64,000 bases of DNA from the NCBI GenBank assembly GCA_049515655.1, contig JBEKTW010000015.1, positions 23,320 through 87,319 of the forward strand, written 5' to 3'. Source of the stretch: Bacteroidota bacterium. GTDB taxonomy: Bacteria; Bacteroidota; Ignavibacteria; UBA10030; SZUA-254. Shown here piece by piece: positions 26,497 through 54,179 of the stretch; position 1 is the first letter of the stretch; each line of letters starts with the position of its first letter. The notes below the pieces were generated by a model. It made no database searches. It was not told where the DNA came from and saw nothing but the letters and a program-made list of their open reading frames with translations. Position numbers and translations under genes: made by a program.

Positions 26497-26499
26497 GAA

Positions 26500-31290: not shown

Positions 31291-31299
31291 CTAAAAACA

Positions 31300-35979: not shown

Positions 35980-35991
35980 TAGAACAAAGGA

Positions 35992-36447: not shown

Positions 36448-37523
36448 TACTGCGATTGAAAAAAATATACTCGTGGATCGACGAACGGGTGCAGCTCGAA
36501 GACGTGGTCAATTTTATGGGCAAGAAATATGTGCCCCTCCACAGCCATTCGATCTGGTACTACTTCGGCGGTGTGTCGCTCTTTCTGTTCATCATCCAGG
36601 TTGTCACCGGCATTCTTCTTCTGCTCTACTACAAGAGTGGTGAGGAGTTCGCGTTTGAGAGCATTCAGTTCATCATGTCGAAAGTCGAATTCGGCTGGCT
36701 CATACGTTCCATTCACAGTTGGACCGCGAACCTGTTCATCCTGGCGGCGATGGTTCATATGTTCAGCGTGTATTTCGGGAAAGCCTACCGCAAACCCCGA
36801 GAGGTGACATGGCTAACGGGCATGCTGATGTTCTTTCTCGCGCTGGGCTTCGGTTTCAGCGGGTACCTTCTGCCCTGGAACGAACTCGCATTCTTCGCGA
36901 CGAAAGTCGGCACGGACATCGCCGGTGTGGTTCCCCTCGTCGGCAAACCGATGATGATATTTCTCAGAGGCGGGGAAGAAGTCACGGGCGCGACCCTCTC
37001 CCGCTTCTTTGGTTTTCATGTGGCGGTCTTGCCCGGGTTATTTACCGTGCTCCTTGGAATCCATCTTCTTCTTGTGCAGCGCCAGGGTATGAGCGAGCCA
37101 ATTGAAACCGAGCCTGGAGCGGGTGTCGAACGAAGGACAATGCCGTTCTTTCCGAATTTTCTGCTGAGAGACCTGTTGCTCTGGCTTATCGTCCTGAATC
37201 TGCTCGCGATACTTGCGGTCTTTTTCCCTTGGGAATTGGGAAGGAAAGCCGACCCGTTTGCACCGGCGCCGGCAGGTATCCGGCCCGAGTGGTATTTCCT
37301 GTTCATGTTCCAAACGCTGAAGTTCATTCCGGCAAAAATGCTGTTCCTCGACGGAGAGGTGCTTGGCATAGGCCTCTTCGGTCTGGGGGGACTCTTGTGG
37401 CTACTGGTTCCCTTCTGGGATAGAAAAAGCTCTCGGGGTGAACAGAATCGCTTCATCAATTACATCGGACTGTTCATCGTTCTGTACATTATGATCTTCA
37501 CAGTACTGGGGTGGATCTTATGA
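36444..37523 (+). CDS. Cytochrome b of a Rieske/cytochrome b complex (b6-like, fused to subunit IV)
   Basis: Four His ligands, SGYLLPW, PEWY Qo motif. Confidence 0.93.
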
Positions 37524-38998
37524 GCCGGAAAATTTCATGCGCGATAGCAGTCATCACCTCCGTACTCCTCGGGAGTAATCCCGCAGTTGCAGGAGACCAG
37601 TGTGTCACATGTCACGAGACCCTGGGTGACAAACCGTCGGAGCTGTTCAAACACGATGTGCATGCTGCGAAAGGAATCTCCTGTGCTGGATGTCACGGGG
37701 GAAATGCGAAGGCGGAAGAGATGGAGCAAGCGATGGATAAAAGCGCCGGGTTTATCGGCGTGCCGAAGGGGGATGATATCTCCAGGGCCTGCGCGAGCTG
37801 CCATTCGAATGCCGAAAAGATGAAAGCATTGGGGTCATCGCTTCCGACCAACCAGTGGGAAATGCTGCAGGCAAGCGTTCACGGGAAGCTTGCCGTCTCC
37901 GGCAAAGAGCATATTGCACAATGTATCACATGCCATAACGCCCACGGCATCGTTTCGGTGAAGAACCCTGAATCCCCGGTGTATCCGCTAAACGTCGTAA
38001 TAACCTGCACGAAATGTCATGCGGATGCGGCGTTCATGCGATCGTACAATCCATCGCTGCCGATCGACCAACTGGAAAAATACCGGACGAGCGTGCATGG
38101 CGTTCGAAACGCCGGAGGTGATGCCAAACCCGCGGAGTGTGCAAGTTGCCACGGCAGCCACGACATTCGGTCGGCGAAAGACGCGAAGTCACGCGTCTAT
38201 GCGGTCAACCTTCCATCAACCTGTGCCTCCTGCCACAGCAATGCAGAGTACATGAAGGAATACAAAATACCGACAGATCAATTTGAGAAATTCTCAAGAA
38301 GCGTACACGGCATCGCATTGCTTCAGAAGCATGACCTCGGCGCTCCAGCGTGCAATTCGTGCCACGGCAACCATGGGGCCACGCCGCCGGGCGTGGAGTC
38401 GGTGTCGAAAGTCTGCGGGACATGTCATGCGCTCAATGCGGACCTCTTCTCATCGAGCCCGCACAAGAAAGCGTTCGATGAGAAGCATCTTCCCGAATGT
38501 GAAACGTGTCACAGCAGTCATGAGATCGTTGCAGCGACGAGTAAGCTCCTCGGTGTCACGCCCGATGCGGTGTGCAGCCGGTGCCACCATGAGAATGAGA
38601 CTGGAAAGGGATTTGTTGTCGCACGAACGATGCGATTGTTGACCGACAGCCTTGAATCATCGGAGATTCGCGCTGCGTCGCTTCTTGACGAGGCCGAACA
38701 AAAGGGAATGGAAGTTTCCGAAGCCAAGTTCAAGCTCCGCGATGCGCACCAGGCGCGGCTGCAGTCACGAACAATGGTGCATTCATTTGATGAGGGTAAG
38801 TTCCGTGACGTCATTTCAAAGGGGTTGACGGTGGCATCGTCGGTCGGGAGTGAAGGACAGCATGCGGTCGACGAGTATTATTTCCGGAGATGGGGCCTCG
38901 GCATTGCGACGCTGATCATTACAATCGTCGGCGTATCATTATACCTCACCATTAAGAGAATTGAAGCTAGACAACGCGCGAAGAAATCACTGTCATGA
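37520..38998 (+). CDS. 11-heme cytochrome c with C-terminal TM anchor
   Basis: Signal peptide, 11 CxxCH, C-terminal TM; ATGA overlap with cytochrome b. Confidence 0.9.
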
Positions 38999-39010
38999 AA
39001 GAGTGAGTGT

Positions 39011-41269
39011 ATGAATGTGGGACAAGTAAGCGTATGGGTTGCGTTCCTGGCCGCTGGGGCGAACGCGTATTTCTTTTACAGGGATGGGAGGAATAGTTCT
39101 CGATCGAGGCAGGCGATCTCCACCGGTATCGCCAAAACCGCGTCGCATCGTCTTTACTGGATTATGCTTCTAGCCGGTGCTGCGGCGTCGGGAATCCTCA
39201 TCGAGTTGCTGCTCACCCATCAATTTCAGTATTCCTACGTTGCTCACTATAGCTCGCGGTCGCTTCCCCTTTTCTACCTCATCTCTGCATTTTGGGCAGG
39301 CCAGGAAGGGACATTCCTTCTCTGGGCGTTGATGGTCTCGGTGATGGGATGGGTGTTTATAAAGACTTCGGAGAACGAAGACGGCTTTGCAATGTCGGTG
39401 GTGAGCGGGTATTGTGCCTTTCTCTACCTGTTGTTGATTGTAAAAAGTCCGTTTGAGATGACATCAACAATTCCGGAAGACGGCGCGGGTCTTAATCCAC
39501 TGCTGCAAAATCCTTGGATGGTCGTTCATCCTCCAATATTGTTCATGGGATATGCCGCAACGGTGTTCCCGTTTGCGCTCGTTGTCTCTGCTCTTGCCCG
39601 ACGTAACACCGGACACTGGTTTGAATCGGGCTTCGTATGGTCGATCTTTGCGACGCTCACACTGGGCGCCGGAATCATCATCGGCGGGTTTTGGGCGTAC
39701 GAAGTGTTGGGCTGGGGCGGATACTGGGGATGGGACCCGGTGGAAAACTCCTCGCTGGTTCCGTGGTTGGTACTGCTGGCATTGATTCATGGCTTCCTCG
39801 TGCAGAGGGCCAGAGGCTCGCTGGTGCGGACGAATATGTTCCTTGCCATTTTTGCGTTTCTGCTTGTGCTTTACGCGACATTCCTGACACGCAGCGGTAT
39901 ACTGGCTGATTTCTCCGTCCATTCGTTCGTCGACCTCGGCATCAGCAACTACCTCATCGGTGTGATGGTCGTCGGCGCCGCCCTGGGCTTGGGATGGTTC
40001 GCAGTTCGGTTCAGAGACTTCACGTCCCCCAGGATTCCACTCTCAGGACTCAATAGGGAGATTACGTTGTTACTCGGTTTGTGGGTGCTAGTTCTGGGCG
40101 CTCTCTTCACGTTCGTCGGAATGTCTTCGCCGATTCTCACCGGGCTTTTCGGGAAAGCATCGCAGGTGGACACCTCCTTTTATAACAAGGTCAATCTCCC
40201 GGTCGCGATCGGCATCGCGTTGTTGCTTGGCGTCACCCCGTTTCTTGGGTGGACGGAAGAGAACAAGTGGGGGTTCGCCAAACGGCTTTCCATGCCGCTC
40301 TCGTTGACTGTTCTCACGTGTGTCATCGCATATGTCGCGGGAGTGACGACGGCCGCACTGCTCGCGTTCGTCGGGTCGGCATCCTTCGGGCTCATAAGCA
40401 ATGTTGTGATTGCCTTCCGGAAATATCGGTCGGGTTGGTTGACGCTGGGTGGCCCGATCACCCATATCGGTACAGGTCTGCTCCTCATCGGAATCATCGG
40501 CTCCGGGAGCTTTGACGAGACCAGACAAACGGTTTTGCGGCTCAATGAACCCCAGACTATTTTCGGCTACCAGTGCACGTTCAAAGGATCGGCACTATCT
40601 TCCGACCAGAGAACACAAATACAGATTGAAGTGTCGGATGGAAGGAATACGTACGCTGCAAATCCGAAGTTGTTTTTCAGTACCTATAATCAGTCGATGC
40701 TTCGCGAGCCCGATATCAAGATATTTCCGATGAAGGATTTATATATCTCTCCGATTGAATTACGATCGTCGCAGGTCGAAAGTCCCCACATAACCCTGGA
40801 GATCACAAAGGGCGAGAAGAAGACCGTTGGGGGATACCAGATAGAATTCGTTCGATTTGAAACAGGCCAACACAGTCAACCGGGAAATATGTCCGTCGGG
40901 GCTGTTCTGAACGTGAGCCTTCAGGGCGAAACCCATGAAGTCACTCCGACCATGACGATCAATGAACAAGGAGAGCGCAATCTCATTCCGGCAGATTTGC
41001 CTGCCGTCCCCAACATGGGGCAGGGCTCGGCCAAACCGCAGGTTGCGCTGACGGGCATGAGCGTGGAACAGAAAAAAGTAATGCTTGAACTTCTCGGCTT
41101 TGATGAGCACGCCGGCGCCCTTGCAGTTCAAGAGCTCGTGGTTGAAATCAGCACCAAACCGCTGATGATGGTTGTTTGGACTGGCGTAATGCTCATCATT
41201 GCCGGAACCGCCATTGCACTGAAACGCAGGCTGACGAAGAATACGTTGTCGCAGGACCCTACCCGATGA
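39011..41269 (+). CDS. ccmF: Cytochrome c maturation heme lyase CcmF
   Basis: WAGQEG, GLNPLLQ..HPP, WGGYWGWDPVEN, TRSG..SVHSF. Confidence 0.93.
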   Translation: MNVGQVSVWVAFLAAGANAYFFYRDGRNSSRSRQAISTGIAKTASHRLYWIMLLAGAAASGILIELLLTHQFQYSYVAHYSSRSLPLFYLISAFWAGQEGTFLLWALMVSVMGWVFIKTSENEDGFAMSVVSGYCAFLYLLLIVKSPFEMTSTIPEDGAGLNPLLQNPWMVVHPPILFMGYAATVFPFALVVSALARRNTGHWFESGFVWSIFATLTLGAGIIIGGFWAYEVLGWGGYWGWDPVENSSLVPWLVLLALIHGFLVQRARGSLVRTNMFLAIFAFLLVLYATFLTRSGILADFSVHSFVDLGISNYLIGVMVVGAALGLGWFAVRFRDFTSPRIPLSGLNREITLLLGLWVLVLGALFTFVGMSSPILTGLFGKASQVDTSFYNKVNLPVAIGIALLLGVTPFLGWTEENKWGFAKRLSMPLSLTVLTCVIAYVAGVTTAALLAFVGSASFGLISNVVIAFRKYRSGWLTLGGPITHIGTGLLLIGIIGSGSFDETRQTVLRLNEPQTIFGYQCTFKGSALSSDQRTQIQIEVSDGRNTYAANPKLFFSTYNQSMLREPDIKIFPMKDLYISPIELRSSQVESPHITLEITKGEKKTVGGYQIEFVRFETGQHSQPGNMSVGAVLNVSLQGETHEVTPTMTINEQGERNLIPADLPAVPNMGQGSAKPQVALTGMSVEQKKVMLELLGFDEHAGALAVQELVVEISTKPLMMVVWTGVMLIIAGTAIALKRRLTKNTLSQDPTR

Positions 41270-41390
41270 GGTGGGCGACTCTCGCTGTATATCGACCACG
41301 GAAGTTTACTGATATTTATCGTGTGGAAGAGAGCGGCCATGCGCAATGTGATTCATAGGATATTCGTTGTGTCGGTTCTGTATGCGGTCG

Positions 41391-42893
41391 ATGTTTAGCA
41401 AGCTCTTTTCATCCCTCGCGAAGAAAATCTTCTTCGCCGTTGGAGCAGCACTCTCCATTTCGGGGGGTATCTTTGTGTACGTTGCCCATCAAACCGGCTA
41501 CATGATGCTCGAATCGCAGGTGCGTGAAAAAGCCCACGATATTGCCACCGTCAGCGAAGCCGTTCTCGCCACTGCGATGACCGAAGAGAAGCACAATCAC
41601 CTACGCGAATTCCTCCAGGCATTGAATTCCTCCCATCAGTTCGCCGACGTGTTCATCCTGCGGCGGGACGGCACGGTGTACTGCGGCACGGATACTCTCC
41701 ATCAGGAGAAAGACTTTTCGCTGGCGCAATTTGGCGATACCGCTCAATGGTCCTCGGAAAGATTTATTTCAAGAACCGAGCAGGGCTCAACCTACGAGTA
41801 CATAGTCACGCCGATCGTCAAATCTCCATCGTGTTACCGGTGCCACACGCTGCCGGAGCCCAACAGAGGTTATCTGACGGTAAAACTTTCGATGGACGAA
41901 GTGCGGGCAACCGCGCTCAAACACCGCGCAACGAACATTCTCATGATCATCGGTACTTTCTTTGGAGTGGGCGGTGTTATCATCATAACTCTTCTTTTTG
42001 TCATTGTCCGGCCGATGAGAAGTATCCATCGGCAGATCAAACATCTCGAGGGTGAGCTGGAAAGCGTGGAACGCGGTGAGCAGGGTCAGTTTTCACAGCT
42101 CCAGGTCCCGTCTTCAAAAGATGAGATTTCGGACCTGATCGTCGCGTTCAACAGACTTACGCGGAGGTTGAACGAGGCTCACGGGAAATTACACGACTTA
42201 CACCAGAAAGAGCTGGAGCATGCCGACAGGCTCGCGAGCACCGGTGTTATGGCCGCGAGTGTTGCGCACGAAATACGAAATCCCGTCGCCGGTGTGCTCG
42301 GGGCACTGCAGGTTTTTGAACACGAGGTTCCCGAAGGAGACGAACGAAAAGAGGTTCTCAAAGAGATGAAACTACAATTGGACCGGGTCAATCAGGCAGT
42401 CAACGATCTCCTGAGTTACGCCCGGCCTACTCCCCCTGTGTACGAGGAATTTTCCATCAACGAGGTGATCCAGAAAACCGTTTCGCTTCTTTCCCGGCAG
42501 CTCAAGGGAAGGCAAATTGACATTCAACTGAGATTGTCGGATAAGAAGGCCGTCATTTCAGCCGACAAGAAACAGGTTCAGCAAGTGTTGTGGAATGTAA
42601 TCCTGAACGCCCTCCAGGCGATGGATACCACCGGCACGCTTATCATCGAATCGTTGCCGGAAGACTCGTTTGTCAAGATCCGTGTCAGCGACACCGGCAA
42701 GGGAATCCCGCTGGAGCTTGCCGACCGTGTGTTTGAACCGTTTTTCACAACGAAGCACAAAGGGACCGGGCTCGGTATGACTATCTCCAAACGCATAATC
42801 GAGCAGCATAAGGGAGCCATTTCAATCGTTAGCCAGGTCAACCAGGGGACAACGGTGACGCTTGTCATGCCGTTGCACGAAGAACATGGGTAA
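41391..42893 (+). CDS. Membrane sensor histidine kinase with periplasmic heme-c motif and HAMP domain
   Basis: 2 TM, CYRCH between them, AHEIRNP H-box; start uncertain (41367/41382/41391). Confidence 0.9.
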   Translation: MFSKLFSSLAKKIFFAVGAALSISGGIFVYVAHQTGYMMLESQVREKAHDIATVSEAVLATAMTEEKHNHLREFLQALNSSHQFADVFILRRDGTVYCGTDTLHQEKDFSLAQFGDTAQWSSERFISRTEQGSTYEYIVTPIVKSPSCYRCHTLPEPNRGYLTVKLSMDEVRATALKHRATNILMIIGTFFGVGGVIIITLLFVIVRPMRSIHRQIKHLEGELESVERGEQGQFSQLQVPSSKDEISDLIVAFNRLTRRLNEAHGKLHDLHQKELEHADRLASTGVMAASVAHEIRNPVAGVLGALQVFEHEVPEGDERKEVLKEMKLQLDRVNQAVNDLLSYARPTPPVYEEFSINEVIQKTVSLLSRQLKGRQIDIQLRLSDKKAVISADKKQVQQVLWNVILNALQAMDTTGTLIIESLPEDSFVKIRVSDTGKGIPLELADRVFEPFFTTKHKGTGLGMTISKRIIEQHKGAISIVSQVNQGTTVTLVMPLHEEHG

Positions 42894-42899
42894 GGAACG

Positions 42900-44270
42900 A
42901 TGCGCGGCGAAACTATCCTCATCGTTGACGACGAAAAACTGATCCGCTGGTCCCTTCAGCAGGAACTCACAAAGGCGGGCTTTAGCGTCTTGAGCGCAGA
43001 AACGACCAAGCAGGGGCTATCGTTGCTCAAAGAGCGTGAACCCGACCTCATGATTCTCGACCAACTTCTCCCCGATGGCACGGGGATTGACGTCCTGCGG
43101 GAAATCAAGAGCTCGGGGGTTGTTCTGCCCGTCATAATGCTTACAGCGATCGACCGGTCCGACATTGCCGTGCAGGCTATGAAGTTGGGCGCAGTCGATT
43201 ACGTGACCAAACCGGTCAACATCGACGAATTGAAAATCGTTATTGAAAGAGAACTCGAAGCGACCAGACTTAAACGGCAGATGGCGCATTTTCTCAGGCA
43301 GCAGGAAAAGAGCTATGGCTTCTGCGGCATGATCGGTTCTTCTCCGCAAATGCAAAAGGTATTCGATACGATCACGAGGATTGCCCAAAGCAGCGGGACA
43401 ACGGTTTTGATCACGGGAGAAAGTGGAACGGGGAAAGAACTAGCCGCCAAAGCCATTCATTTTCTGGGCGCCCGCCGGGACAATCCGTTGATCACGGTGA
43501 ATTTCTCCGCAATGGCCGAAACAATCATTGAGAGTGAGCTGTTCGGACATGAGAAAGGGGCATTCACCGATGCAAGAAATCAGAAAAAAGGGGTTTTTGA
43601 GCTTGCGCACAAGGGAACCATTTTTCTGGATGAAATAGGAGACGTTTCACTGAAAGTTCAGGTGAAACTGCTTCGTGTGCTCGAACAGAAATCGTTCCAG
43701 CGCGTCGGCGGAACTTCGGACATTACCGTGGATGTTCGCATCATCGCTGCGACCAACAGATCTCTTGAATCGCGGCTGGCAGAAGAAAAGTTCCGGGCCG
43801 ATCTCTACTACCGGCTCAACGTGGCGAGTGTTCATCTGCCTCCGCTCCGGGAACGCGGTGAAGATATCGTCCTGTTGGCAGAATATTTCCTTCAGGAATT
43901 TAACACGAAATTCCATAAGGAGTTCAAACGACTTGCCGAGGAAACAAAGGAATTGTTCTCCGGCTATCATTGGCCGGGCAATGTGAGAGAGATGAGGAAT
44001 GTGCTGGAGCGGGCAATTCTGTTGTGGGACGACGACGTCATCCAACCGCACCATATCGAATTTCCACGGCTTCATCAACCCCCCCCGCCGTCGTTTGACC
44101 CGGGACTCGGAGCAGCAGCAGGGAATGTCTCCCTTTATGAGTTGGAGAAACAAGCGCTCATCCAGGCTTTGACAAAAACCAACCAAAACCAGTCTCGAGC
44201 GGCAAAGTTGTTGAAAATCAGCCGTGATACGCTTCGCTACAAGATGAAGAAATATGGCCTACTCACGTAG
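42900..44270 (+). CDS. Sigma54-dependent NtrC-family response regulator
   Basis: REC, GESGTGKE, GAFTDA, WPGNVRE, Fis HTH. Confidence 0.94.
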   Translation: MRGETILIVDDEKLIRWSLQQELTKAGFSVLSAETTKQGLSLLKEREPDLMILDQLLPDGTGIDVLREIKSSGVVLPVIMLTAIDRSDIAVQAMKLGAVDYVTKPVNIDELKIVIERELEATRLKRQMAHFLRQQEKSYGFCGMIGSSPQMQKVFDTITRIAQSSGTTVLITGESGTGKELAAKAIHFLGARRDNPLITVNFSAMAETIIESELFGHEKGAFTDARNQKKGVFELAHKGTIFLDEIGDVSLKVQVKLLRVLEQKSFQRVGGTSDITVDVRIIAATNRSLESRLAEEKFRADLYYRLNVASVHLPPLRERGEDIVLLAEYFLQEFNTKFHKEFKRLAEETKELFSGYHWPGNVREMRNVLERAILLWDDDVIQPHHIEFPRLHQPPPPSFDPGLGAAAGNVSLYELEKQALIQALTKTNQNQSRAAKLLKISRDTLRYKMKKYGLLT

Positions 44271-44410: not shown

Positions 44411-44426
44411 TGGCACAAATCTTGCA
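44411..44426 (+). promoter_or_regulatory. Sigma54 promoter
   Basis: TGGCACAAATCTTGCA, matches TGGCAC-N5-TTGCW. Confidence 0.8.
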
Positions 44427-44457
44427 CTCCATGCAGTTCTGTTTGAATGGACACTGG

Positions 44458-44865
44458 ATGAATCCCCTGACGAAAACCGACAAAAAGGAAAGTTTCCGAA
44501 AAGCAGAACGCGCGATTCTCATCGTTGACGACGAACCGTTGGTGTGCTGGTCATTGAAAAATGCCCTGGAAAGGGCCGGGTTCGAGGTCACGACCACTGA
44601 ATCTGGAGAAGCGGCAATCCAACTGTTGAAAGATTCTTTCTTTGATCTTATCATCACCGACATGAACCTTCCGAGCAGGGATGGTTTTGAGGTTGCCCGG
44701 GCTGGGCTGGGTGGGCCCAAGCAGGTCCCTGTCATCATGGTTACCGCCTATGGGGATGAGTCAGCACGAGAGAGAGCTGAAAGGATGGGCGTAAGTTACG
44801 TTGTTGACAAACCTTTCGATCTGAGTGAGATGGTTAATCTGGCGAGGCAGCTCATCTGTAGTTGA
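44458..44865 (+). CDS. Stand-alone response regulator receiver protein
   Basis: ILIVDDE, ITDMNLP, VTAYG, KPFD; start placed downstream of the sigma54 promoter. Confidence 0.85.
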   Translation: MNPLTKTDKKESFRKAERAILIVDDEPLVCWSLKNALERAGFEVTTTESGEAAIQLLKDSFFDLIITDMNLPSRDGFEVARAGLGGPKQVPVIMVTAYGDESARERAERMGVSYVVDKPFDLSEMVNLARQLICS

Positions 44866-45043
44866 GACGCATCTGCTGGGAGTTGTGCGCAAGGGATTTG
44901 TGAGACAACACCCACACTGCGCCATTTCACCCACTCCAAGTGCATAACTGATAATGCATTTCATCGATGCCGTTTCAGGTGACGCTTTTCTCTGAAAAAC
45001 GGCAAAAAACCTCAATTAAAGCCCCAAGAACTGATCGCCTTTG

Positions 45044-45059
45044 TGGCACAAGGCTTGCA
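45044..45059 (+). promoter_or_regulatory. Sigma54 promoter
   Basis: TGGCACAAGGCTTGCA, 57 nt upstream of ATG with SD aaaggag. Confidence 0.8.
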
Positions 45060-45115
45060 CATGATTCGCATAGTTGAATTTCCCATACAACAATTACAAA
45101 CAAAGGAGACATAGT

Positions 45116-47878
45116 ATGAAGCAATCAACTACAGTTTTTCTTGTAGGATTGCTGATTTTTGCTGTTACTGGCACTGCGATGGCGACAGTTCCGACGGCAA
45201 GAATAGTGATCAGGGCTGCCTCAACGGGGCTGATCGCAAGCCATCCGAGCGAATTCAATGCAATATCGGACGGCTTGCCGAATGTCGGCCGTGGCAGCAG
45301 GGTGTGGCTTGAAGCGGCTGCCTTGGAAGGCACTGTCCCGAGCACACTCCATTACGACACGCTGACTGGCGCAACGTGGCGAGTCATCTCTGCCCCCGCC
45401 CACTCGGTTGCAACTATTCGGGCGACGGATACGGCTAATGGCTTAAAAGGCTTTACGGCGATGTTCGTTCCCGATTCATTAGGTCAATATCAAATCGGCT
45501 TGACCGTTACCACGTTGAATGGCACAAGCGCTGAAGTGACGGAGTACATTAACTCCGCAAATTATGTAGGCGTTGGGACAATCATCGGCAATTCGCCAAC
45601 CGCTCCGGAGTGCGGCGCTTGTCATAATGGAAACGTGGTGGCAGACAAAGTGACACCGTGGCAAGGAACAGCGCATGCGACGATGTTTTCGAACAGCATT
45701 GATGGGAAGAATGGGGCCTACATGAGTTTCTGCATTTCGTGTCACACGACGGGGTACAACGCCACTCCAACGGCCGTGAATAATGGCTTCGATGATCGCG
45801 CCACAGCCTATGGTTGGCATTTCCCCGACACGATAAAGGCCGGCAACTGGGATTATATGAAGGCCAACTATCCGGAAGTTGCAAAGTTGGCGAATATCCA
45901 GTGCGAAGACTGCCATGGACCTGGAAGTTTACACCTCGGTGCAATGAACAAGAATCAAATCGCAGTGAGTTGGTCGTCTGAGATGTGCGGACACTGCCAT
46001 GATGCCCCGCCGCATCACACGAAGAACGAGCAATGGAATATGACGGCCCATGCTATCTCCACGGAGGAGGGCGTGGACATTGAGGCCATGAATCGTGCCC
46101 CTTGTGCCCAATGCCACACTTCACAGGGTTTCGTCGATGTGACAATCGACGGCAACACTGATGCAGCACCGTATACGAATGTTCAGCCGGTCGGCTGCAT
46201 TGGCTGTCATGATCCCCATGACGCATCCCATCCAGCGCAACTCCGTCGCGCATCTCTGGCAGACGCGTGCACCGGATGCCACCTGACGCGCATCAGCTCT
46301 CGCGGTTTACATAGTAATACTCAGGGACCTATGCTTGCAGGAGCGAGTGCTATACCGTACAACGGGCAGGGTGGCATCGCCGGCGGAATCGATAACTGGA
46401 GTGGATGGCAGCTTGCCGGATACATGTATCCCAATTCCGCGCACTCGAGCATCACCGACAAATGCGTCACATGTCACATGGCAACGGTTCCGGCAGATTC
46501 TCTGGTAGGTAAGCTCGGCGACCATTCATTCAAAGTTGCCTACGACCAGGACAGCACGCACACGATCTTTAACACAAACGGTTGTGTGTGCCATGGTACC
46601 GGTGGAGTTGCCCCGGTCACCCAGACCTACGTCGAGCAGAGTCAGGCCAAAATAAATGCCCTTCTTGATACGCTTGCGACGTTGTTGCCTCAAAAGAGCG
46701 GTGTCGTTCGCAGTCACAATGATACATCGTATCACGCATGGACACCGTTAAAGATTGCAGGAGCGTATAATTACTATTTCGTTAACAACGATGGTAGCTT
46801 TGGCGTTCACAACCATAATTACGCAACAGCATTGCTAACCTCGTCTATCGAGCAGTTGAGACTTGTCGCCGGTGCAGCGACTATTGCCTCCATCAAAGAT
46901 GTTCCGAACGATCAGGGAAAACAGGTTCAGATTGTTTGGAATATATTCCCGACGGAACAGAGCAGCATTGATCCCGTGACACAGTATGGTGTTTGGAGAC
47001 AAGACGCTCTCTCTAGCTCAAACGTGTCAACAGTGAAATTCCATTCTTTCAGAGAGATGCTGTCCAAAGGAACGGTCGGTTCACGGTATGCCGTCAACGG
47101 ATATGTGTGGACGTATGTCGGTTATGTGCCTGCTGCCAAGCAGAGCATGTATTCCTTTGTTGCACCGACACTGTTTGATTCAACGATCAGCGCGGGCATG
47201 AAGTGGACATACTTCTATGTGACTGGATTAACCAACAACGGTGTTGTGTATAGTACGATGCCGGACAGCGGTTATTCGGTCGACAACTTGGCTCCAGCGC
47301 CACCCAGCGGAATCGGTGCACGGATCATTGCAAATACCGTCCACCTTGGGTGGAGGATATCGTTAGATCAGGACTTCAAGTACTTTGCGGTCTACCGGGG
47401 AACATCTCCCGATTTCAACCCGCATGGAACAAGTCCGCTGGCGACGACATCCGACACATCCTACGTTGATCAGAATGTTTCAGCCGGTGCGACGTATTAC
47501 TATAAACTATCTGCATTTGACTTCTCGGGTAATGAGAGCCAATATTCACCCGCTCTGACGGTAGTCGTGCTTGGTGTTGGCGAGAATAACGGCGCTCCAA
47601 GGGAGTACGCCCTTGCTCAAAACTATCCGAATCCGTTTAACCCATGGACTGAGATCAGATATCAACTTCCTGAAGTCGCTCACGTGAAAATCACAGTGTA
47701 CAACACACTCGGTGTGCAAGTTGCTACGCTGGTCGACAGGAACGAAGAAGTCGGCTATTATACCGTCACATGGGACGGGAATGACAATCGGGGTAATGTT
47801 GTTGCAAGCGGCATTTACCTCTATAAGATGGAAGCCGGTTCGTACTCGGTAGCGAAGAAGATGATCTTCATGAAGTAA
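45116..47878 (+). CDS. Multiheme cytochrome c (8 CxxCH + 1 CxCH) with Ig/FN3-like domains and T9SS type-A C-terminal sorting domain
   Basis: Signal peptide, heme region ending DGSFGVHN, DNLAPAPP..YYYKLSAFD, QNYPNPFNP..VASGIYLYKM..KKMIFMK. Confidence 0.9.
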   Translation: MKQSTTVFLVGLLIFAVTGTAMATVPTARIVIRAASTGLIASHPSEFNAISDGLPNVGRGSRVWLEAAALEGTVPSTLHYDTLTGATWRVISAPAHSVATIRATDTANGLKGFTAMFVPDSLGQYQIGLTVTTLNGTSAEVTEYINSANYVGVGTIIGNSPTAPECGACHNGNVVADKVTPWQGTAHATMFSNSIDGKNGAYMSFCISCHTTGYNATPTAVNNGFDDRATAYGWHFPDTIKAGNWDYMKANYPEVAKLANIQCEDCHGPGSLHLGAMNKNQIAVSWSSEMCGHCHDAPPHHTKNEQWNMTAHAISTEEGVDIEAMNRAPCAQCHTSQGFVDVTIDGNTDAAPYTNVQPVGCIGCHDPHDASHPAQLRRASLADACTGCHLTRISSRGLHSNTQGPMLAGASAIPYNGQGGIAGGIDNWSGWQLAGYMYPNSAHSSITDKCVTCHMATVPADSLVGKLGDHSFKVAYDQDSTHTIFNTNGCVCHGTGGVAPVTQTYVEQSQAKINALLDTLATLLPQKSGVVRSHNDTSYHAWTPLKIAGAYNYYFVNNDGSFGVHNHNYATALLTSSIEQLRLVAGAATIASIKDVPNDQGKQVQIVWNIFPTEQSSIDPVTQYGVWRQDALSSSNVSTVKFHSFREMLSKGTVGSRYAVNGYVWTYVGYVPAAKQSMYSFVAPTLFDSTISAGMKWTYFYVTGLTNNGVVYSTMPDSGYSVDNLAPAPPSGIGARIIANTVHLGWRISLDQDFKYFAVYRGTSPDFNPHGTSPLATTSDTSYVDQNVSAGATYYYKLSAFDFSGNESQYSPALTVVVLGVGENNGAPREYALAQNYPNPFNPWTEIRYQLPEVAHVKITVYNTLGVQVATLVDRNEEVGYYTVTWDGNDNRGNVVASGIYLYKMEAGSYSVAKKMIFMK

Positions 47879-47906
47879 TTCTTCAACAGAACCGGTAGAT
47901 TAACCG

Positions 47907-47942
47907 CAAGGCGTGGGTCAGTTCACGACTGCCCACGCCTTG
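47907..47942 (+). terminator. Hairpin, probable terminator or mRNA-stabilising stem
   Basis: caaggcgtggg ... cccacgccttg followed by attattt. Confidence 0.6.
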
Positions 47943-48100
47943 ATTATTTCGATAAGGGCGGAGATGTACTCATTATTCAAATTTTACGAAATGGAACCGA
48001 ATGACCGAGAAGAAAATAGTCCTTTCCTGCCGGGACTGGAAGCTTGCTCCTTGTGGAGGAATTTGCTAGATTCTCAGGCTAACGCATATTGTTGGAAGAT

Positions 48101-50119
48101 ATGAGATTCCTGGTCATTTCATTTTTCTGCTGCTCTCTTTTTGTCGCTTCTGCGGAAGCTCAGCAACGATCCGGCGGATATCTCCAGCAGGAGAAGAGTC
48201 TGATGGACGCCGAAGCTCGGCGCCACCAAGTGCTTACTCCACAAAACACAGTTGCAAGCCTCGCCGGCGATTCTTACGATGTCACCTACTACCGCCTCAA
48301 TCTGCGAATGGCGGCAGGTCATTCGATTTCCGCTGGTCTTTGGGGTGAGGTAACCGTATCCGCTTTTGTGAGTCACGCCAGCCTTGATACATTCGTCCTG
48401 GATCTGATGAAACCGATGACAGTGGATTCAGTGAGAGTTGAGGGGGTTCCCTCATCGTTTGAGCAGGATCCTGTTTCTGTTCGAATCGCACTTGGCCGCG
48501 GTTACGGTCCCGGCGAGCGGGTCACGGTCGATGTCTTTTATGAAGGCATTCCTCATCCGACGGAATTTGGGAGCTTTGAGATCGACACGGGTCGGACACC
48601 CGCTTGGATCTGGTCGCTCAGCGAACCCTACGGCGCGAGAGATTGGTGGCCGTGCAAGAATTCTCCCGGCGATAAAGCGGACTCCGCAGACATTATCGTA
48701 ACCTGCGATTCGACATTCAAGGTCGGTTCCAACGGTAAGCTCATTTCCGTTCTGAACAACGAAGACGGGACATCAACCTGGCACTGGGCAGAACGATACC
48801 CGATCTCTTCCTATCTTATTTCGGTAGCGCTCACGAATTTTGCTTCCTTTTCAAACTGGTTTAAATATTCGCCGACCGATTCGATGGAAATACTGAATTT
48901 CGTTCTGCCTGAAGATCTGTCGCAGGCCCGGGCAAATCTTCCTAGAACGGTTGACATGCTTACGATCTATTCGAGACTGTTCGGCTTGTATCCATTCATC
49001 AAAGAGAAGTACGGACACTCGGAGTTTGGATGGGGCGGGGGGATGGAACACCAGACAATGACTTCCGTCTCCGCCAGCGGTTTCGGAGAATACGTTATAT
49101 CCCATGAGCTGGCACATCAATGGTTCGGAGATATGATTACCTGCCGGACCTGGTCCGACATCTGGCTGCATGAAGGCTTCGCAGTGTATTGCACCGCGCT
49201 TTATTATGAAAAGGAATACGGCGTCGATTCATACCGGGGATTTATGGAAGACGAGATGTCCGGGGCAAAAAGCGGGGTGGGAACGATTTTCGTACAAGAC
49301 ACAACCTCGGTGGGCAATATCTTCAACGGCAACCTCGAGTACCAGAAAGGTGCAGCGGTTCTGCACATGTTGAGGCATATCCTTGGAGACAGCACGTTTT
49401 TTCATGCGATGTATAACTATGCGAATACTCCGGCATTGAGGTATTCCACTGCGATGACGGAGGATTTCAAGGCGGCGTGTGAAAATGTCTCCGGCAAGAA
49501 CCTCGATTATTTTTTCAACGAATGGATCTACGGTGAGAACTATCCACAGTACACGTACTCCTGGTCTTCACACCCCTCTTCGGATAGTTACACCGTGACA
49601 GTGCGCGTCCGTCAAGGCACCGGAACGGCAAATCCCCCTTTTTTCACAATGCCGGTTGATTTGAAGTTCACGTCTTCCGGCTGGGATACCGTCGTAACGG
49701 TGTTCAATGATTCTCAACAGCAATCGTTCACGGTGGGGATTTCGCATGATCCGACGTCGGTTCTTCTTGACAACGACGGCTGGATCCTGAAGGATGCGGC
49801 CCTCGTGCCGGACGGTGTGTTGAGACCCGCTCCGGTAGTTTCGAACTTTTCACTGGAACAGAATTATCCGAATCCGTTTAATCCTTCAACGGTCATTTGC
49901 TACCAAATTCCAAAGGCAACGCGGGTTACTATCATCATTTATGACCTGCTCGGTGCGGAAGTGGCGATGCTCGTCGACGGCCATCAGGAATCCGGAGACC
50001 ATTCGGTTATCTGGAACGGCGTGGATCGGTTCGGTCATCAGGTTGCCAGCGGAATTTACTTGTATAAGATTGAAGCGGGCACAATTCAGTCAGCGAAGAA
50101 AATGGTATATCTCAGGTAG
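48101..50119 (+). CDS. M1-family zinc aminopeptidase with T9SS C-terminal sorting domain
   Basis: GGMEH, HELAHQW..WLHEG, QNYPNPFNP CTD; TTGCTC-17-TAGATT promoter at 48044-48072. Confidence 0.92.
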   Translation: MRFLVISFFCCSLFVASAEAQQRSGGYLQQEKSLMDAEARRHQVLTPQNTVASLAGDSYDVTYYRLNLRMAAGHSISAGLWGEVTVSAFVSHASLDTFVLDLMKPMTVDSVRVEGVPSSFEQDPVSVRIALGRGYGPGERVTVDVFYEGIPHPTEFGSFEIDTGRTPAWIWSLSEPYGARDWWPCKNSPGDKADSADIIVTCDSTFKVGSNGKLISVLNNEDGTSTWHWAERYPISSYLISVALTNFASFSNWFKYSPTDSMEILNFVLPEDLSQARANLPRTVDMLTIYSRLFGLYPFIKEKYGHSEFGWGGGMEHQTMTSVSASGFGEYVISHELAHQWFGDMITCRTWSDIWLHEGFAVYCTALYYEKEYGVDSYRGFMEDEMSGAKSGVGTIFVQDTTSVGNIFNGNLEYQKGAAVLHMLRHILGDSTFFHAMYNYANTPALRYSTAMTEDFKAACENVSGKNLDYFFNEWIYGENYPQYTYSWSSHPSSDSYTVTVRVRQGTGTANPPFFTMPVDLKFTSSGWDTVVTVFNDSQQQSFTVGISHDPTSVLLDNDGWILKDAALVPDGVLRPAPVVSNFSLEQNYPNPFNPSTVICYQIPKATRVTIIIYDLLGAEVAMLVDGHQESGDHSVIWNGVDRFGHQVASGIYLYKIEAGTIQSAKKMVYLR

Positions 50120-50356: not shown

Positions 50357-50746
50357 ATGAAAAGCAAAATCATTACCGCGAGTGTGGTTATCGTTGCGGC
50401 TCTGGTGTTCGGCGCACTCTCATTCGTGGAAAGCAATGTTGAGTACACGGACATGCAGACGGCAATGTCTTCGCACAAAAGGGTGCAGGTAAAAGGTGCA
50501 TGGGTGAGGGAAAAGGAATCGACGTTTGACGCCGACAAAGGCCAATTTGTGTTCTTCATGAAAGACGATAACGGCCAGGAAACGAAGGTCGTCTTTGATG
50601 GAGCAAAGCCGAACAATTTTGAGATCGCCAATGCGATTGTCGTGAAGGGACGCTATCAGGATGGGTATTTTCACGCGAGCGACATTCTGACGAAGTGTCC
50701 ATCGAAGTACGAGGCCAATTCAGATACAGTAAAGAAAACTCTCTAA
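50357..50746 (+). CDS. ccmE: Heme chaperone CcmE, CxxxY variant
   Basis: N-terminal TM, FHASDILTKCPSKY. Confidence 0.9.
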   Translation: MKSKIITASVVIVAALVFGALSFVESNVEYTDMQTAMSSHKRVQVKGAWVREKESTFDADKGQFVFFMKDDNGQETKVVFDGAKPNNFEIANAIVVKGRYQDGYFHASDILTKCPSKYEANSDTVKKTL

Positions 50747-50756
50747 GACCATCACG

Positions 50757-52073
50757 GTGAAATTCTTTCAACGGTTTTTGCTTCTTGTCTCCCTTCTTGC
50801 TGTTTCCTCGTTGACAAACGCTCAGCTCGTCAACGGCCGGTTCAGCACCTCCGTTTATGCGTGGCAGCAATTTGACACGGTCGGCGTTTCTCAGACCTTG
50901 GCTCGGGGATTCCAGACCCTGCAACTCGAAGTATCGCAAGGGGATGTTTCACTGCGCACATCGATGTATGGCGCTACGAATTTTTCACAGTCGTTTGGTA
51001 ATGATGGACTTATTCGCATCAACAACCTGTATCTGAGATGGAAAAACATCGAAGATGCAATGGATCTCAGCCTGGGGAGAATTCCTGTCTTTGCCGGTGT
51101 CGGCAACGGGACTTTGGACGGTGCCCTGATCAAGGCGCGGGGCATGGATGAACGCGTCTGGTTTACAGCCTACGGGGGGGCGAACGTTCTACCCGATCTA
51201 AAATCAATGAGTTTCAGCGACCTCGATCAAAAGTTTTTGATTGGAAGCCAGCTCATCACAACGTTGATTCCTCAGGCACGGATTGGTGTCAGTTATGTGA
51301 ACCGTCATATTCCACGGGAGAGCTATTGGGCAACACGCCCGGATTCACTTTTCAATCCAACGACCGTGCTTATTGTTCCGGATTCCCGGGCTCAGCAGGC
51401 AGTGGGAGTTGATGCCCGCTACGACCAGGATGGCGCGTATTCTGTTTACAGTCGGTATGATTATGATTTGAATTCCAAGTACACGCTTCGCGGACAGTTC
51501 GGCGCTCGCGTGCAGACTTCCGATCAACTTGCGCTCACGGGAGATTTCATCTATCGCGAGCCGTATGTTCCCTTTAATTCTTTCTTCACAGTCTTTCCGG
51601 TCTCTCCGATTCGTGAATTAGAGGGCGGTATCGAGTATTCTGTTTCGCCTTCCTATCATGCGTTTGGAAGATTCGCGTACGTCGGATATGTCGACGCGCT
51701 CAGCCGGCGTATTACTGTGGGAATGAACGCAGACTACGGCAGCATCAGCTATGCGGGTAGCAGCGGATATGCCGGCATCCTGAATTCATTTTATGTGCAG
51801 GGGATGTACCCGTTGTTGGATCGTACGCTTGTTCCCACGGTCGGATTTTCTTATTCCAAATACCGTTTGAGTGAAGAAGCGACCCAGGATGACAACGTGT
51901 TTGCCGGATCGTTTGGCGCGGTCGTTCGACCGTCGTCGCTCATTTCGGTCGACGCACAGGTGCAATGGCTGCACAACGACATTGCCAGTCATGATGTCCG
52001 GCTGCTTGTGAACGTGAACTATTGGTTTAATCACAATTTTAAGTTCCTCCAGCACAAGGAGGCGAGCGAATGA
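50757..52073 (+). CDS. Putative outer-membrane beta-barrel (porin of a porin-cytochrome conduit)
   Basis: Signal peptide, alternating aromatic beta-strand pattern throughout, no hemes, ATGA overlap with a multiheme gene. Confidence 0.7.
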   Translation: MKFFQRFLLLVSLLAVSSLTNAQLVNGRFSTSVYAWQQFDTVGVSQTLARGFQTLQLEVSQGDVSLRTSMYGATNFSQSFGNDGLIRINNLYLRWKNIEDAMDLSLGRIPVFAGVGNGTLDGALIKARGMDERVWFTAYGGANVLPDLKSMSFSDLDQKFLIGSQLITTLIPQARIGVSYVNRHIPRESYWATRPDSLFNPTTVLIVPDSRAQQAVGVDARYDQDGAYSVYSRYDYDLNSKYTLRGQFGARVQTSDQLALTGDFIYREPYVPFNSFFTVFPVSPIRELEGGIEYSVSPSYHAFGRFAYVGYVDALSRRITVGMNADYGSISYAGSSGYAGILNSFYVQGMYPLLDRTLVPTVGFSYSKYRLSEEATQDDNVFAGSFGAVVRPSSLISVDAQVQWLHNDIASHDVRLLVNVNYWFNHNFKFLQHKEASE

Positions 52074-53122
52074 TGCAAAGGTATATCGCTGCCGCTTTGT
52101 TCCTGGCCCTGTTCGTCGCTGTTTCCGTTGCGATGAAAGAGCCTATGCGGAAATACTGGCAGGAGGAAGACCACTCCAAGTTTATTAAGTTTTCGCATAC
52201 GTTCCACGTAAGGGAGCAGAGTATCGCCTGCGTAGATTGTCACACGGATGCCAAAGCGAGCAAGCTTTCGTCGGATAATCTTCTGCCGAATCACGAAAGC
52301 TGCAAGACGTGTCATGATGAGCAAGTTGCGGGCAATTGTACATATTGCCATACGACGAAGGATAATATTCTTCCGATAAAACGACCGGAACGCGAACTGA
52401 TATTTTCTCATGAGCTCCACGCAGGGAAACAAAATATCAATTGTGAAACGTGCCACGCCGGAACGGACACTGTCACCTTTGCAACGAGCAGGAACATGCC
52501 AGCGATGACGGCGTGTGTGAGCTGTCACGAGCAGAAAAAGATTTCAACGAATTGTGAAACCTGCCATCGCGACTTTGTTACGCTCGTTCCCGAGGATCAC
52601 CTTACAACGGATTTCCGCAAAGAGCACAAGAAGCTCACCCGACTGGGCATGAAAGATGTAACCTGTAAAACGTGTCACTCGGAGAATTTCTGTCAGGATT
52701 GCCACACGGGGACGGAGTTGCACGGCTTCTCGGGCACGAAAGACTTAATGGCCGAGCCGGCACCCAGCCCATTCGCAAAGGATTCACCGAAGCAATTGAG
52801 ACTGCAAAAAGCTCATGGGCTGAATTACCGGTTCACCCATGGCGTGGAGGCAAAATCGAAGGCGCTCGACTGCGCATCATGCCACGAACAACAAACGTTT
52901 TGCGTGACGTGTCACGAAGCCGGCGGCAACATTAACCAGCTGAAATTCAAGCCGGCATCGCACATTGCGGCCGGGTTCACGACCATCGGTAAAGGGTCCG
53001 GCGGCGGACGGCATGCTGAGCTCGCCCGGCGCGACCTCGAAAGCTGTATGTCGTGCCACGACGTGCAGGGAAATGACCCGACATGCATGTTATGTCACAC
53101 AGGAAATGGCGGAGTACGATAA
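52070..53122 (+). CDS. Periplasmic 12-heme cytochrome c (c3/c7-like repeats)
   Basis: 12 CxxCH, FSHxxH motifs, signal peptide. Confidence 0.9.
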   Translation: MMQRYIAAALFLALFVAVSVAMKEPMRKYWQEEDHSKFIKFSHTFHVREQSIACVDCHTDAKASKLSSDNLLPNHESCKTCHDEQVAGNCTYCHTTKDNILPIKRPERELIFSHELHAGKQNINCETCHAGTDTVTFATSRNMPAMTACVSCHEQKKISTNCETCHRDFVTLVPEDHLTTDFRKEHKKLTRLGMKDVTCKTCHSENFCQDCHTGTELHGFSGTKDLMAEPAPSPFAKDSPKQLRLQKAHGLNYRFTHGVEAKSKALDCASCHEQQTFCVTCHEAGGNINQLKFKPASHIAAGFTTIGKGSGGGRHAELARRDLESCMSCHDVQGNDPTCMLCHTGNGGVR

Positions 53123-53126
53123 CTGC

Positions 53127-54179
53127 ATGAGAAAGCTTGAATCCATCTGTGTATCGTTTGCTCTTGCCGGTCTTATGCTCCATCCCGGATGCACGAAACT
53201 GGACGAAGGATTGCCGGCGCCGACAAGCGGTCAAGTGCAGGTTCATCCGGCCGGGTGGGGCGACACCAACTCGACGAGTTTTCACGGCAAATTCTTGAGC
53301 GCAAAAGCATGGCAATTGAGCAACTGCACGCCATGCCATGGGGACGCGCTTGGGGGCGGGACGGCCGGAGTGTCCTGCTTCACATGCCATAAATCCTATC
53401 CCCACAGCGCCGGATGGACAGATTCAACAACGGCAGGACTCCACGGAAATTTCATCCAGGCATCGGGATGGGATATGCGTCAATGCCAGACGTGCCACGG
53501 AGTCACCTACGCAGGAGGACGAGTGAACGTTTCGTGCCTGACGTGCCACACAAAACCAAACGGTCCCGAGAACTGCACAACTTGTCACGGTGGAATCAAC
53601 GCGGCTCCGCCAAGAGATCTCAGCGGGAATACGTCGACAACTGCACGTGGCGTCGGTGCGCATCAGGCTCATCTGCTCGGAAGCTCTCTCGCCTCACCGT
53701 TGCTCTGCTCCGAGTGCCATAATGTTCCCTCGTCGGTGTATCAAGCCGGGCACATTGGTTCTACCGGTCATGCTGAGATACACTTCAACGGTCCGCTCGG
53801 CACGTTGAAAACAGCCGGCGGGACGTTTGTTCCAGCGCCGTCGTATGACGTAACAACGGGCAAGTGCAGCAATACATTCTGTCACGGCAACTGGCGTCAC
53901 GAGGAATCGACTTCTGCGTACCAATGGGCGTTCAAGGATACGGTCATGGCAGGCGCAAACTATTCTCCTTCATGGACAGGAGGTTCTTCCGAATCTGCGT
54001 GCGATAGTAGTTGTCACGGTTTGCCGCCGGCTGGGCACCTCCAGACGGCAGACAAGTGCGCTCAGTGTCACACCGGGGTTGTGGACTTCAGCGGCAACAT
54101 CATCGACTCGACGAAACACATTAACGGAAAAGTAGACGTCTTCGGGCAAGATACAACGATTTTCCATTCTCAACTGTGA
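53127..54179 (+). CDS. Probable lipoprotein multiheme cytochrome c (7 CxxCH + CX4CH + CX3CH)
   Basis: Signal ending LHPGC, CSNTFCHG, CDSSCHG, HINGKVD. Confidence 0.85.
   Translation: MRKLESICVSFALAGLMLHPGCTKLDEGLPAPTSGQVQVHPAGWGDTNSTSFHGKFLSAKAWQLSNCTPCHGDALGGGTAGVSCFTCHKSYPHSAGWTDSTTAGLHGNFIQASGWDMRQCQTCHGVTYAGGRVNVSCLTCHTKPNGPENCTTCHGGINAAPPRDLSGNTSTTARGVGAHQAHLLGSSLASPLLCSECHNVPSSVYQAGHIGSTGHAEIHFNGPLGTLKTAGGTFVPAPSYDVTTGKCSNTFCHGNWRHEESTSAYQWAFKDTVMAGANYSPSWTGGSSESACDSSCHGLPPAGHLQTADKCAQCHTGVVDFSGNIIDSTKHINGKVDVFGQDTTIFHSQL

Follow-up and report, generated by a model that had tools for sequence, protein, structure and literature searches.

The window analysed here is a stretch of 64,000 nt from contig JBEKTW010000015.1 of assembly GCA_049515655.1, with positions given on the forward strand. 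It contains a gene for a nonaheme c-type cytochrome of the OcwA family, whose product ends in a type A C-terminal sorting domain (CTD) of the type IX secretion system (T9SS). The gene is preceded by genes for a heme lyase and three regulatory proteins, and followed by a peptidase gene, a heme chaperone gene and a set encoding a predicted outer-membrane barrel and two further multiheme cytochromes (Table 1). The genome as a whole (4.1 Mb in 54 contigs, 100% complete) contains 12 open reading frames (ORFs) with at least three CxxCH motifs, eight of which fall inside the window. The assembly at the cytochrome gene is sound: an independent peat-metagenome contig spans positions 44900-48000 with nine substitutions and no indels, near-identical DNA occurs in the peat metagenome runs X2-X5, and the codons of the contracted ninth heme site, CVCH, are unchanged in contigs of X3-X5.

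Table 1. Features of the cytochrome locus, in window positions (aa, residues of the cytochrome; AF2, AlphaFold2).
Feature	Position	Strand	Evidence and remarks
CcmF-type heme lyase	39011..41269	+	Pfam Cytochrom_C_asm, CcmF_C; kept in loci L114 and L115
Sensor histidine kinase (HAMP, HisKA, HATPase_c)	41367..42893	+	Pfam; order upstream of the cytochrome kept in L114, L115 and L118
NtrC-type sigma-54 activator (receiver, Sigma54_activat, HTH_8)	42900..44270	+	Sigma54_activat 225 bits; GAFTGA
First exact sigma-54 -24/-12 site (TGGCACaaatcTTGCA), before the response regulator	44411..44426	+	Motif search
Single-domain response regulator, ORF as listed	44422..44865	+	Response_reg 96.5 bits, residues 32-140
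Exact sigma-54 -24/-12 promoter of the cytochrome gene (TGGCACaaggcTTGCA)	45044..45059	+	TGGCAC-N5-TTGCA
Shine-Dalgarno sequence AAGGAG	45103..45108	+	Direct reading; 7 nt before ATG
Whole coding sequence, OcwA-family nonaheme cytochrome c with T9SS type A CTD (P0001)	45116..47878	+	920 aa, no internal stops
Putative Sec signal peptide, aa 1-23 (...TAMA/TV)	45116..45184	+	Direct reading; helix 2-21 in AF2 model
N-terminal Ig/PKD-like beta-sandwich, aa 27-148	45194..45559	+	AF2 strands
Nine-heme core, aa 150-500, c554-like N-part and NrfA-like C-part	45563..46615	+	Pfam; OcwA alignment
Ninth heme site, contracted to CVCH, aa 490-493	46583..46594	+	C490, C492 and H493 invariant
Three long helices with DGSFGVHN, aa 503-584	46622..46867	+	AF2; aligns with the OcwA helix bundle
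Unnamed beta domain, aa 590-720	46883..47275	+	AF2; conserved motif DVPNDQGKQV
FN3 domain, aa 727-817	47294..47566	+	Profile matches to 5z06, 3mpc and 1k85; Foldseek FN3 strings
T9SS type A C-terminal sorting domain, aa 832-920	47609..47875	+	TIGR04183, FlgD_ig, Foldseek; AF2 sandwich 832-918
Terminator-like hairpin past the stop codon	47907..47942	+	-27.8 kcal/mol, z -4.19; 0/200 shuffles as stable
CcmE heme chaperone	about 50357..50746	+	PF03100 56.6 bits at 50459-50716
Predicted large outer-membrane beta-barrel P0257, 438 aa, candidate porin	50757..52073	+	AF2, pLDDT 84.3
12-heme cytochrome with signal peptide	52070..53122	+	Start overlaps the porin stop by 4 nt
7-heme cytochrome, lipoprotein-like N-terminus (MRKLESICVSFALAGLMLHPGC)	53127..54179	+	Lipobox by reading

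The cytochrome contains eight CxxCH motifs, with cysteines at residues 166, 206, 263, 291, 330, 361, 385 and 450, and a CVCH motif at residues 490-493, the same count as in an earlier reading of this DNA (hereafter, the initial annotation). None of its 18 cysteines is spare, and CxxCK sites are absent. The N-terminus, MKQSTTVFLVGLLIFAVTGTAMA/TVP, resembles a Sec signal; by reading, a hydrophobic helix at residues 2-21 is followed by an AMA/T site. An AF2 model of the whole protein, computed heme-free from 54 homologs, has a mean pLDDT of 86.7 and gives substance to the Ig-like N-terminus and FN3-like spacers that had been described, in the form of an N-terminal beta-sandwich and an FN3 domain ahead of the CTD. 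Residues 62-129 match PKD-type domains in a profile search of the PDB (6nz0, E 3.4e-5); no Pfam family matches the N-terminal domain at E up to 1. The heme core is loop-rich in the model (about residues 150-500) and is followed by three helices (503-523, 544-557 and 564-584). The motif DGSFGVHN (559-566) lies between helices 2 and 3, so that the helical segment of the initial annotation stands while the placing of the motif at its end does not. The domain at residues 586-725 likewise has no Pfam match at E up to 1, and in the ESM Atlas it matches unnamed clusters only. Pfam families above cut-off in the protein are Mtrc-MtrF_II-IV_dom, Cytochrome_C7, Cytochrome_C554 (30.8 bits), Paired_CXXCH_1 and FlgD_ig. 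The linker before the CTD is of low confidence, with pLDDT below 50 at residues 820-825. In an exhaustive search, the block of beta domain, FN3 domain and CTD (residues 586-920, positions 46871-47875) was also found to close many proteins that are not cytochromes and differ in length, which suggests that it is a portable 'stalk plus tag' cassette.

To find the closest structural relatives of the heme core, all PDB sequences were compared with a profile (A1) built from 54 full-length homologs. The best match is OcwA of Thermincola potens (6i5b; E 5.9e-34, 120 bits), in an alignment that begins at the first heme motif, extends to the helix bundle and takes in the motif DGSxGVHN (DGSNGVHN in OcwA). 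OmhA comes second (6qvm, E 2.1e-25), followed by octaheme nitrite reductase (ONR), MccA and NrfA. In A1 none of the nine heme sites varies, nor do H187, H273, H368, H470, H565 and M455; H312 and H443 are present in 51-53 of the 54 sequences. Judged by sequence, the cytochrome is a member of the OcwA family, in the OcwA-OmhA clade of the NrfA-c554-MccA super-group, and the profile search strongly bears out what the initial annotation had offered as a guess.

According to PMC6703420 and PMC9250108, OcwA and OmhA reduce iron at the cell surface of Gram-positive bacteria; in both, a tetraheme part resembling c554 is joined to a pentaheme part that resembles NrfA and has a three-helix bundle, and two of their hemes (2 and 5) are penta-coordinated, with non-bonding distal His residues. 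Like OcwA (6I5B) and OmhA (6QVM), the protein of the window has nine hemes, spread over a c554-like and then an NrfA-like part, together with a three-helix bundle and the D-G-S-x-G-V-H-N motif, and the role we propose for it, that of a cell-surface terminal reductase, is the one proposed for them in those papers. Unlike OcwA of T. potens JR and OmhA of Carboxydothermus ferrireducens, which are held by the wall or S-layer of monoderm Firmicutes, it belongs to a diderm. Beyond the shared parts it has an Ig-like domain at the N-terminus, a beta/FN3 stalk of 230 residues and a T9SS CTD. Its ninth heme site is CVCH instead of CxxCH, and at position 400 a Ser stands in place of the pocket His of OcwA.

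In Shewanella, the decaheme lipoproteins MtrC and OmcA reach the cell surface by type II secretion; their family has a layout of four domains, two of which are pentaheme domains. The present cytochrome has no lipobox and belongs to a different fold family, its nearest relatives being OcwA, OmhA, ONR, MccA and NrfA. The Pfam match to Mtrc-MtrF_II-IV_dom (42.5 bits) is local only, covering residues 193-342, and among the 55 PDB sequences matched by A1 no chain is named MtrC, MtrF, OmcA or UndA. Assignment to the MtrC/OmcA/UndA decaheme family was therefore rejected, in view of this local match, the nine hemes, the missing lipobox and the OcwA, OmhA and NrfA types of the nearest structures.

The C-terminal domain exceeds the cut-offs of both models by which the initial annotation had proposed to check it, TIGR04183 (32.8 bits against 23, residues 837-917 of 920) and FlgD_ig (41.6 bits against 27), and the top Foldseek match of the whole model is PorU (6za2). 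It is of the same type as the CTD of the neighbouring M1-family peptidase, but the two are 53% identical (48/90, E 2e-27) and not nearly the same, as had been stated. The genome contains at least 150 TIGR04183 matches; with a hidden Markov model derived from the family's own CTD, 163 of its ORFs end in such a domain, and the cytochrome is the only one of them with any CxxCH. SprA (860.2 bits), PorU (973.9 bits) and PorV (252.7 bits) are all full-length and over their curated cut-offs, and PorU adjoins PorV. Like classical type A cargo (gingipains, HBP35, the Flavobacterium chitinase, adhesins), the cytochrome has an Ig-like CTD above the TIGR04183 cut-off at its end and a putative Sec signal at its start, and SprA, PorV and PorU are encoded in the same genome. 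Unlike that cargo, it would be covalently loaded with nine hemes, and its host lineage has no recognisable GldK, GldL, GldM or GldN.

The fusion of this core to a CTD is widespread. In the order to which the genome belongs, 96 of 201 genomes carry the core (E up to 1e-20). The 30 best loci in the order comprise 27 intact genes, all of which end in a CTD, one gene cut at a contig end and two split by frameshifts. A word-indexed search returned 634 matches, and 111 of the best 120 have a full core and a terminal CTD; of the further representatives that the exhaustive search added, 71 have the core and 50 of these are CTD-ended. The initial annotation had called for a count of such fusions; the combination of core and terminal CTD is present in at least 161 database cluster representatives. 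The source labels of the homologs include Ignavibacteriae, Bacteroidota, KSB1, Calditrichaeota and Latescibacteria, often with the name 'T9SS type A sorting domain-containing protein'. A scan of contigs was dominated by the peptide pattern of the CTD; L004 was the sole full-length relative, and L005, L007, L008 and L019 have the core alone.

The same core is joined to other C-termini in contigs labelled as Chloroflexota (Limnocylindrales), Myxococcota (Myxococcaceae) and Deltaproteobacteria. Since the core carries other C-termini outside the CTD-using phyla, the CTD tail has the character of a lineage-specific localisation module. In a number of these proteins (L005 9878-12220, L007 9917-12214, P0113, P0145, P0207 and P0240) the CTD is replaced by an end of the form [FY][FY]RV-x(2-6), possibly another kind of C-terminal signal for sorting or anchoring. 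In L115 (5780-7756, reverse strand) and L120 (11830-13725, forward strand), an unrelated protein of about 630-660 aa with seven CxxCH motifs, also CTD-ended, is encoded beside the nonaheme gene; CTD-tagged cytochromes are therefore not limited to one family.

Gene order is conserved as well. The succession of a cytochrome b and 11-heme gene, CcmF, histidine kinase, NtrC-type activator, response regulator, nonaheme cytochrome, porin, 12-heme and 7- or 8-heme cytochromes and CcmE is kept in L114 and L115. In L118 the three regulatory genes are followed by two tandem genes for core and CTD, each behind an exact sigma-54 site, and the L004 gene, whose product is 36% identical, adjoins a porin homolog and 12- and 14-heme genes.

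The ninth heme site is contracted in the window protein and in its seven closest relatives within A1 (CxCH); 45 of the 46 others have CxxCH and one has Cx4CH. A simple anchor located this site in 136 of 212 core sequences, with 118 CxxCH, 12 CxCH, five Cx4CH and one Cx5CH. The conservation of both cysteines and of the His argues that heme is still attached at CVCH. In other clades it is site 1 that is contracted (CACH, CGCH) or expanded (Cx3CH, L093-L095), with spacing variants also among L097, L101, L102, L105 and L107; in P0176, sites 1 and 9 are both contracted.

The initial annotation had assigned heme attachment to the cytochrome c maturation (Ccm) pathway, System I, and the gene content bears this out. 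Both CcmF and CcmE are encoded within the locus, CcmF being unique in the genome (phmmer returns itself alone), and ResB was not found in the genome. As the sole maturation system seen, System I is the supported route of maturation, and since its parts, CcmE and CcmF, are the only ones found, Ccm may also mature the CXCH sites. System I is not known to tolerate CXCH. A contracted site has been reported from Kuenenia, which uses System II. The two cases share a one-residue spacer between the cysteines where relatives have CxxCH; they differ in that only System I parts were found here, and heme attachment at CVCH is putative. The Kuenenia site, in a tetraheme cytochrome and said to be the subject of a report by Ferousi et al. 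in J Biol Chem in 2019, is reportedly functional.

The sigma-54 promoter, the strong Shine-Dalgarno sequence and the downstream hairpin that the initial annotation ascribed to the gene were all recovered (Table 1). Exact TGGCAC-N5-TTGCW sites number six on both strands of the genome, where about one is expected by arithmetic, and two of them lie within 650 bp (633 bp apart), beside the NtrC gene. The genome has one ORF with an RpoN box and three with GAFTGA, the NtrC-type activator among them. As the listed start of the response regulator overlaps the first of the two promoters, its true start is probably further downstream. Upstream of homologous genes, relaxed versions of the sigma-54 motif were found in L115, L117 and L118 (two genes).

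The candidate porin P0257 is encoded 3 kb downstream of the cytochrome. Its AF2 model shows a signal helix and 24 strand elements, for a predicted barrel of 22-24 strands, and its best Foldseek matches are the 24-strand usher barrels FimD/PapC (TMq 0.55) and the Occ/AlgE porins. It has no Pfam match and no sequence match to MtrB or to any PDB chain, and the set is therefore treated as an analogue of the MtrB conduit, no kinship having been detected. With the two cytochrome genes that follow, the region 50757-54179 has the make-up of a porin-cytochrome conduit, for which it is a candidate. As in Shewanella, with MtrC/OmcA and MtrAB, and in the porin-cytochromes of Geobacter, the gene for a multiheme cytochrome of the surface (here a putative one) has as neighbours the genes of a large barrel, predicted here, for the outer membrane and of a multiheme partner for the periplasm. 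Apparent recoding in matches to the porin ('1-2 TGA inside') was dismissed as an artefact, since three translated examples proved to be tandem stops at the true gene end, read through.

Further upstream in the window, positions 23629-29371 encode a 4-heme protein, a 759-aa fusion of 13 heme motifs with a membrane domain of the cytochrome b561 type, a protein with 19 hemes and another b561-like protein. Together they are a possible quinol-oxidising entry to a periplasmic electron path. After the b561-like gene come genes for the beta and alpha subunits of an electron transfer flavoprotein (ETF) and for an acyl-CoA dehydrogenase (29375-33021). The region 34483-41269 encodes a NapC/NirT-like 6-heme protein, then a Rieske protein, a cytochrome b and an 11-heme membrane-anchored cytochrome, and finally CcmF. 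Between the nonaheme cytochrome and ccmE lies the gene of the M1-family peptidase, with its own type A CTD (48089-50119). It was considered as a functional partner and rejected, because a strong hairpin separates the two genes and the peptidase is absent from all 18 related loci examined. Its gene probably entered the locus as an insertion unrelated to the rest.

We consider it probable, as regards the composite taken whole, that the cytochrome serves an extracellular electron-transfer chain as its outermost relay or as its terminal reductase, and that it reaches its place through the T9SS. Sec would deliver the protein to the periplasm, where the Ccm system encoded in the locus would load its nine hemes, one of them on the contracted CVCH site. 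PorV and SprA would then bind the CTD and move the folded holo-protein across the outer membrane, and PorU would cleave it in the linker, leaving the cytochrome probably anchored on the surface, with the beta/FN3 stalk of about 230 residues holding the nine-heme module off the membrane. Electrons would arrive through the porin with its 12-heme and 7-heme lipoprotein cytochromes, a conduit fed further back by the upstream quinol-oxidising multiheme and cytochrome b proteins, and would leave to Fe(III), Mn(IV), humic substances or a partner. Transcription would be switched on from the sigma-54 promoter by the adjacent histidine kinase and NtrC-type activator. In its broad lines this is also the interpretation of the initial annotation, which is upheld as regards Ccm, SprA, PorU and PorV and the likeness to OcwA, and not as regards GldK, GldL, GldM and GldN, which were not found.

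Several observations weigh against this interpretation, and some of them concern the core itself. The top 50 Foldseek matches of the whole model are taken up by FN3, receptor and PorU chains, with OcwA not among them, and the likeness of the core fold therefore depends on the sequence profiles. Moreover, OcwA reduces nitrite and hydroxylamine weakly in vitro (PMC6703420), so that a catalytic role is possible for the cytochrome too. It could then be a T9SS-exported redox enzyme or detoxifier of the surface or extracellular space, acting on nitrite, hydroxylamine, a sulfur compound or peroxide at OcwA-like hemes with open coordination, and not a relay to minerals or humics. The membership of the family in a super-group with NrfA, c554, MccA and ONR is in keeping with such a role, as is the apparent placement of H301 (51/54 A1 sequences) and H399 (53/54) at or beside the distal-pocket His positions of OcwA (by a 99-residue spacing in the alignment, with residue numbers from PMC9250108). 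However, position 400, which aligns with the second pocket His of OcwA, is variable across the family, the CxxCK type of site is missing, and the neighbouring genes are those of a porin and a multiheme conduit and not of the nitrogen or sulfur cycle. The nitrite turnover of OcwA is, in addition, very low (kcat 1 per min; PMC6703420). We regard an enzymatic role as unlikely.

Other adverse points concern export. The T9SS genes that the initial annotation had wished to see were found as regards sprA, porV and porU and were not found as regards gldKLMN: in the 100%-complete genome there is no match to GldK, GldL, GldM or GldN (TIGR03525, TIGR03513, TIGR03517 and TIGR03523), nor to Pfam GldM_1st (PF12081), even with E allowed to reach 1. 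Of seven T9SS core parts tested, four are accordingly either lacking or not recognisable. The GldM model served as a positive control: within the phylum it matches 37 of 151 genomes, 36 with a score over cut-off, but none of the genomes sampled from the order of the window and none in two other identifiable families of the class. The single ORF of the FGE-sulfatase type was considered as GldK and rejected, as it has no gldLMN-like neighbours or operon. The absence of a recognisable ring and motor is the main caveat to the claim of export, and from the gene complement it looks as though the T9SS of this lineage works without the known ring and motor, or with substitutes that are not recognisable. 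On the side of the cargo, the Pfam family Por_Secre_tail (PF18962) scores 25.0 on the CTD, under its cut-off of 27.

These points, together with the lack of any c-type cytochrome reported as T9SS cargo in the searchable literature, would fit a cytochrome that stays in the periplasm, either because its CTD is merely a structural module of Ig fold or because the secretion system refuses a nine-heme holo-protein. Yet the 163 CTD-ended ORFs and the full-length SprA, PorU and PorV are difficult to account for unless the pathway works, the 27 intact genes found in the 30 best loci have all retained the CTD, and homologs outside the CTD-using phyla exchange it for other tails. A disordered linker ahead of the CTD is, furthermore, what is expected for a sortase site. 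A periplasmic location is, in our judgement, improbable.

The remaining adverse points relate to how consistently the parts occur together. The core is found in 16 of the 43 genomes of the family of the window and is missing from the sole other genome of its genus, which is also without the porin; the cytochrome gene is an accessory one. The porin is the commoner of the two, being present in 163 of the 201 genomes of the order; it occurs in 91 of 95 genomes with the core and in 71 of 105 without it, so that the conduit does not need the cytochrome. As genomes of one order are related, these counts of co-occurrence overstate independence and are only suggestive. A relaxed sigma-54 motif lies upstream of five of the 20 homologous genes examined and is missing in the closest relative, L114.

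An electron flow in the inward direction through the same architecture at the same location, with uptake from Fe(II), reduced humics or a partner cell, has a low probability in our view: multiheme chains are reversible in principle and peat offers Fe(II) as well as Fe(III), the metagenome runs showing the habitat only, but the ETF, the acyl-CoA dehydrogenase and the NapC/CbcL-like quinol-oxidising cytochromes of the locus suit the electron disposal of an organotroph, and the nearest characterised relatives, OcwA and OmhA, are reductases.

The interpretation as a T9SS-displayed outer relay touches on a subject for which we found no precedent. Extracellular electron transfer is mechanistically understood in a few models: the Mtr system of Shewanella with type II secretion, the porin-cytochromes and filaments of Geobacter, and OcwA of Thermincola. 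Bacteria of the Fibrobacteres-Chlorobi-Bacteroidetes (FCB) group, such as Ignavibacteria, KSB1, Calditrichota and Latescibacterota, are frequent inhabitants of peat, sediments and sludge, and respiration with Fe(III) or humics is often suspected in them. In the literature searched, which excluded subscription papers and supplements, no report links the T9SS with multiheme cytochromes or with extracellular electron transfer, and no description was found of how FCB bacteria place cytochromes beyond the outer membrane. Secreted multiheme cytochromes have been predicted in metagenome-assembled genomes of Bacteroidota, with the T9SS unmentioned in the available text (PMC11495043); for Melioribacter, the accessible portion of PMC3534657 gives Por domains on carbohydrate-active enzymes only; and the terms Ignavibacteri, Bacteroidota, secretion and sorting do not occur in PMC11475568. 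Among the papers listed by a broad search, the two themes come together solely in that Melioribacter paper and in an archaeal review. Annotation pipelines already name homologs after one part of the protein or the other. Surface cytochromes of the OcwA type and T9SS cargo are thus each known, and it is their combination that appears to be undescribed. The domain content suggests that tagging a cytochrome for the T9SS is a means, hitherto undescribed, of bringing electron-transfer proteins to the cell surface.

A more general claim is put forward tentatively, as a serious possibility that falls somewhat short of being probable: the T9SS exports and displays mature multiheme cytochromes, including CXCH-bearing ones matured by Ccm, using SprA, PorV and PorU without recognisable GldKLMN, and this is a route of their own in Ignavibacteria-like bacteria, KSB1, Calditrichota and Latescibacterota. 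It raises the questions of how a T9SS operates without GldKLMN and whether Ccm can attach heme to CXCH. The fusion of an OcwA-type nonaheme module with a T9SS sorting domain would provide a concrete and testable answer as to how FCB bacteria display their cytochromes. If this is true, the range of T9SS cargo widens to cofactor-loaded redox proteins, and these bacteria would build their electron-transfer surface by a route unlike either the type II secretion that serves MtrC in Shewanella or the systems of Geobacter.

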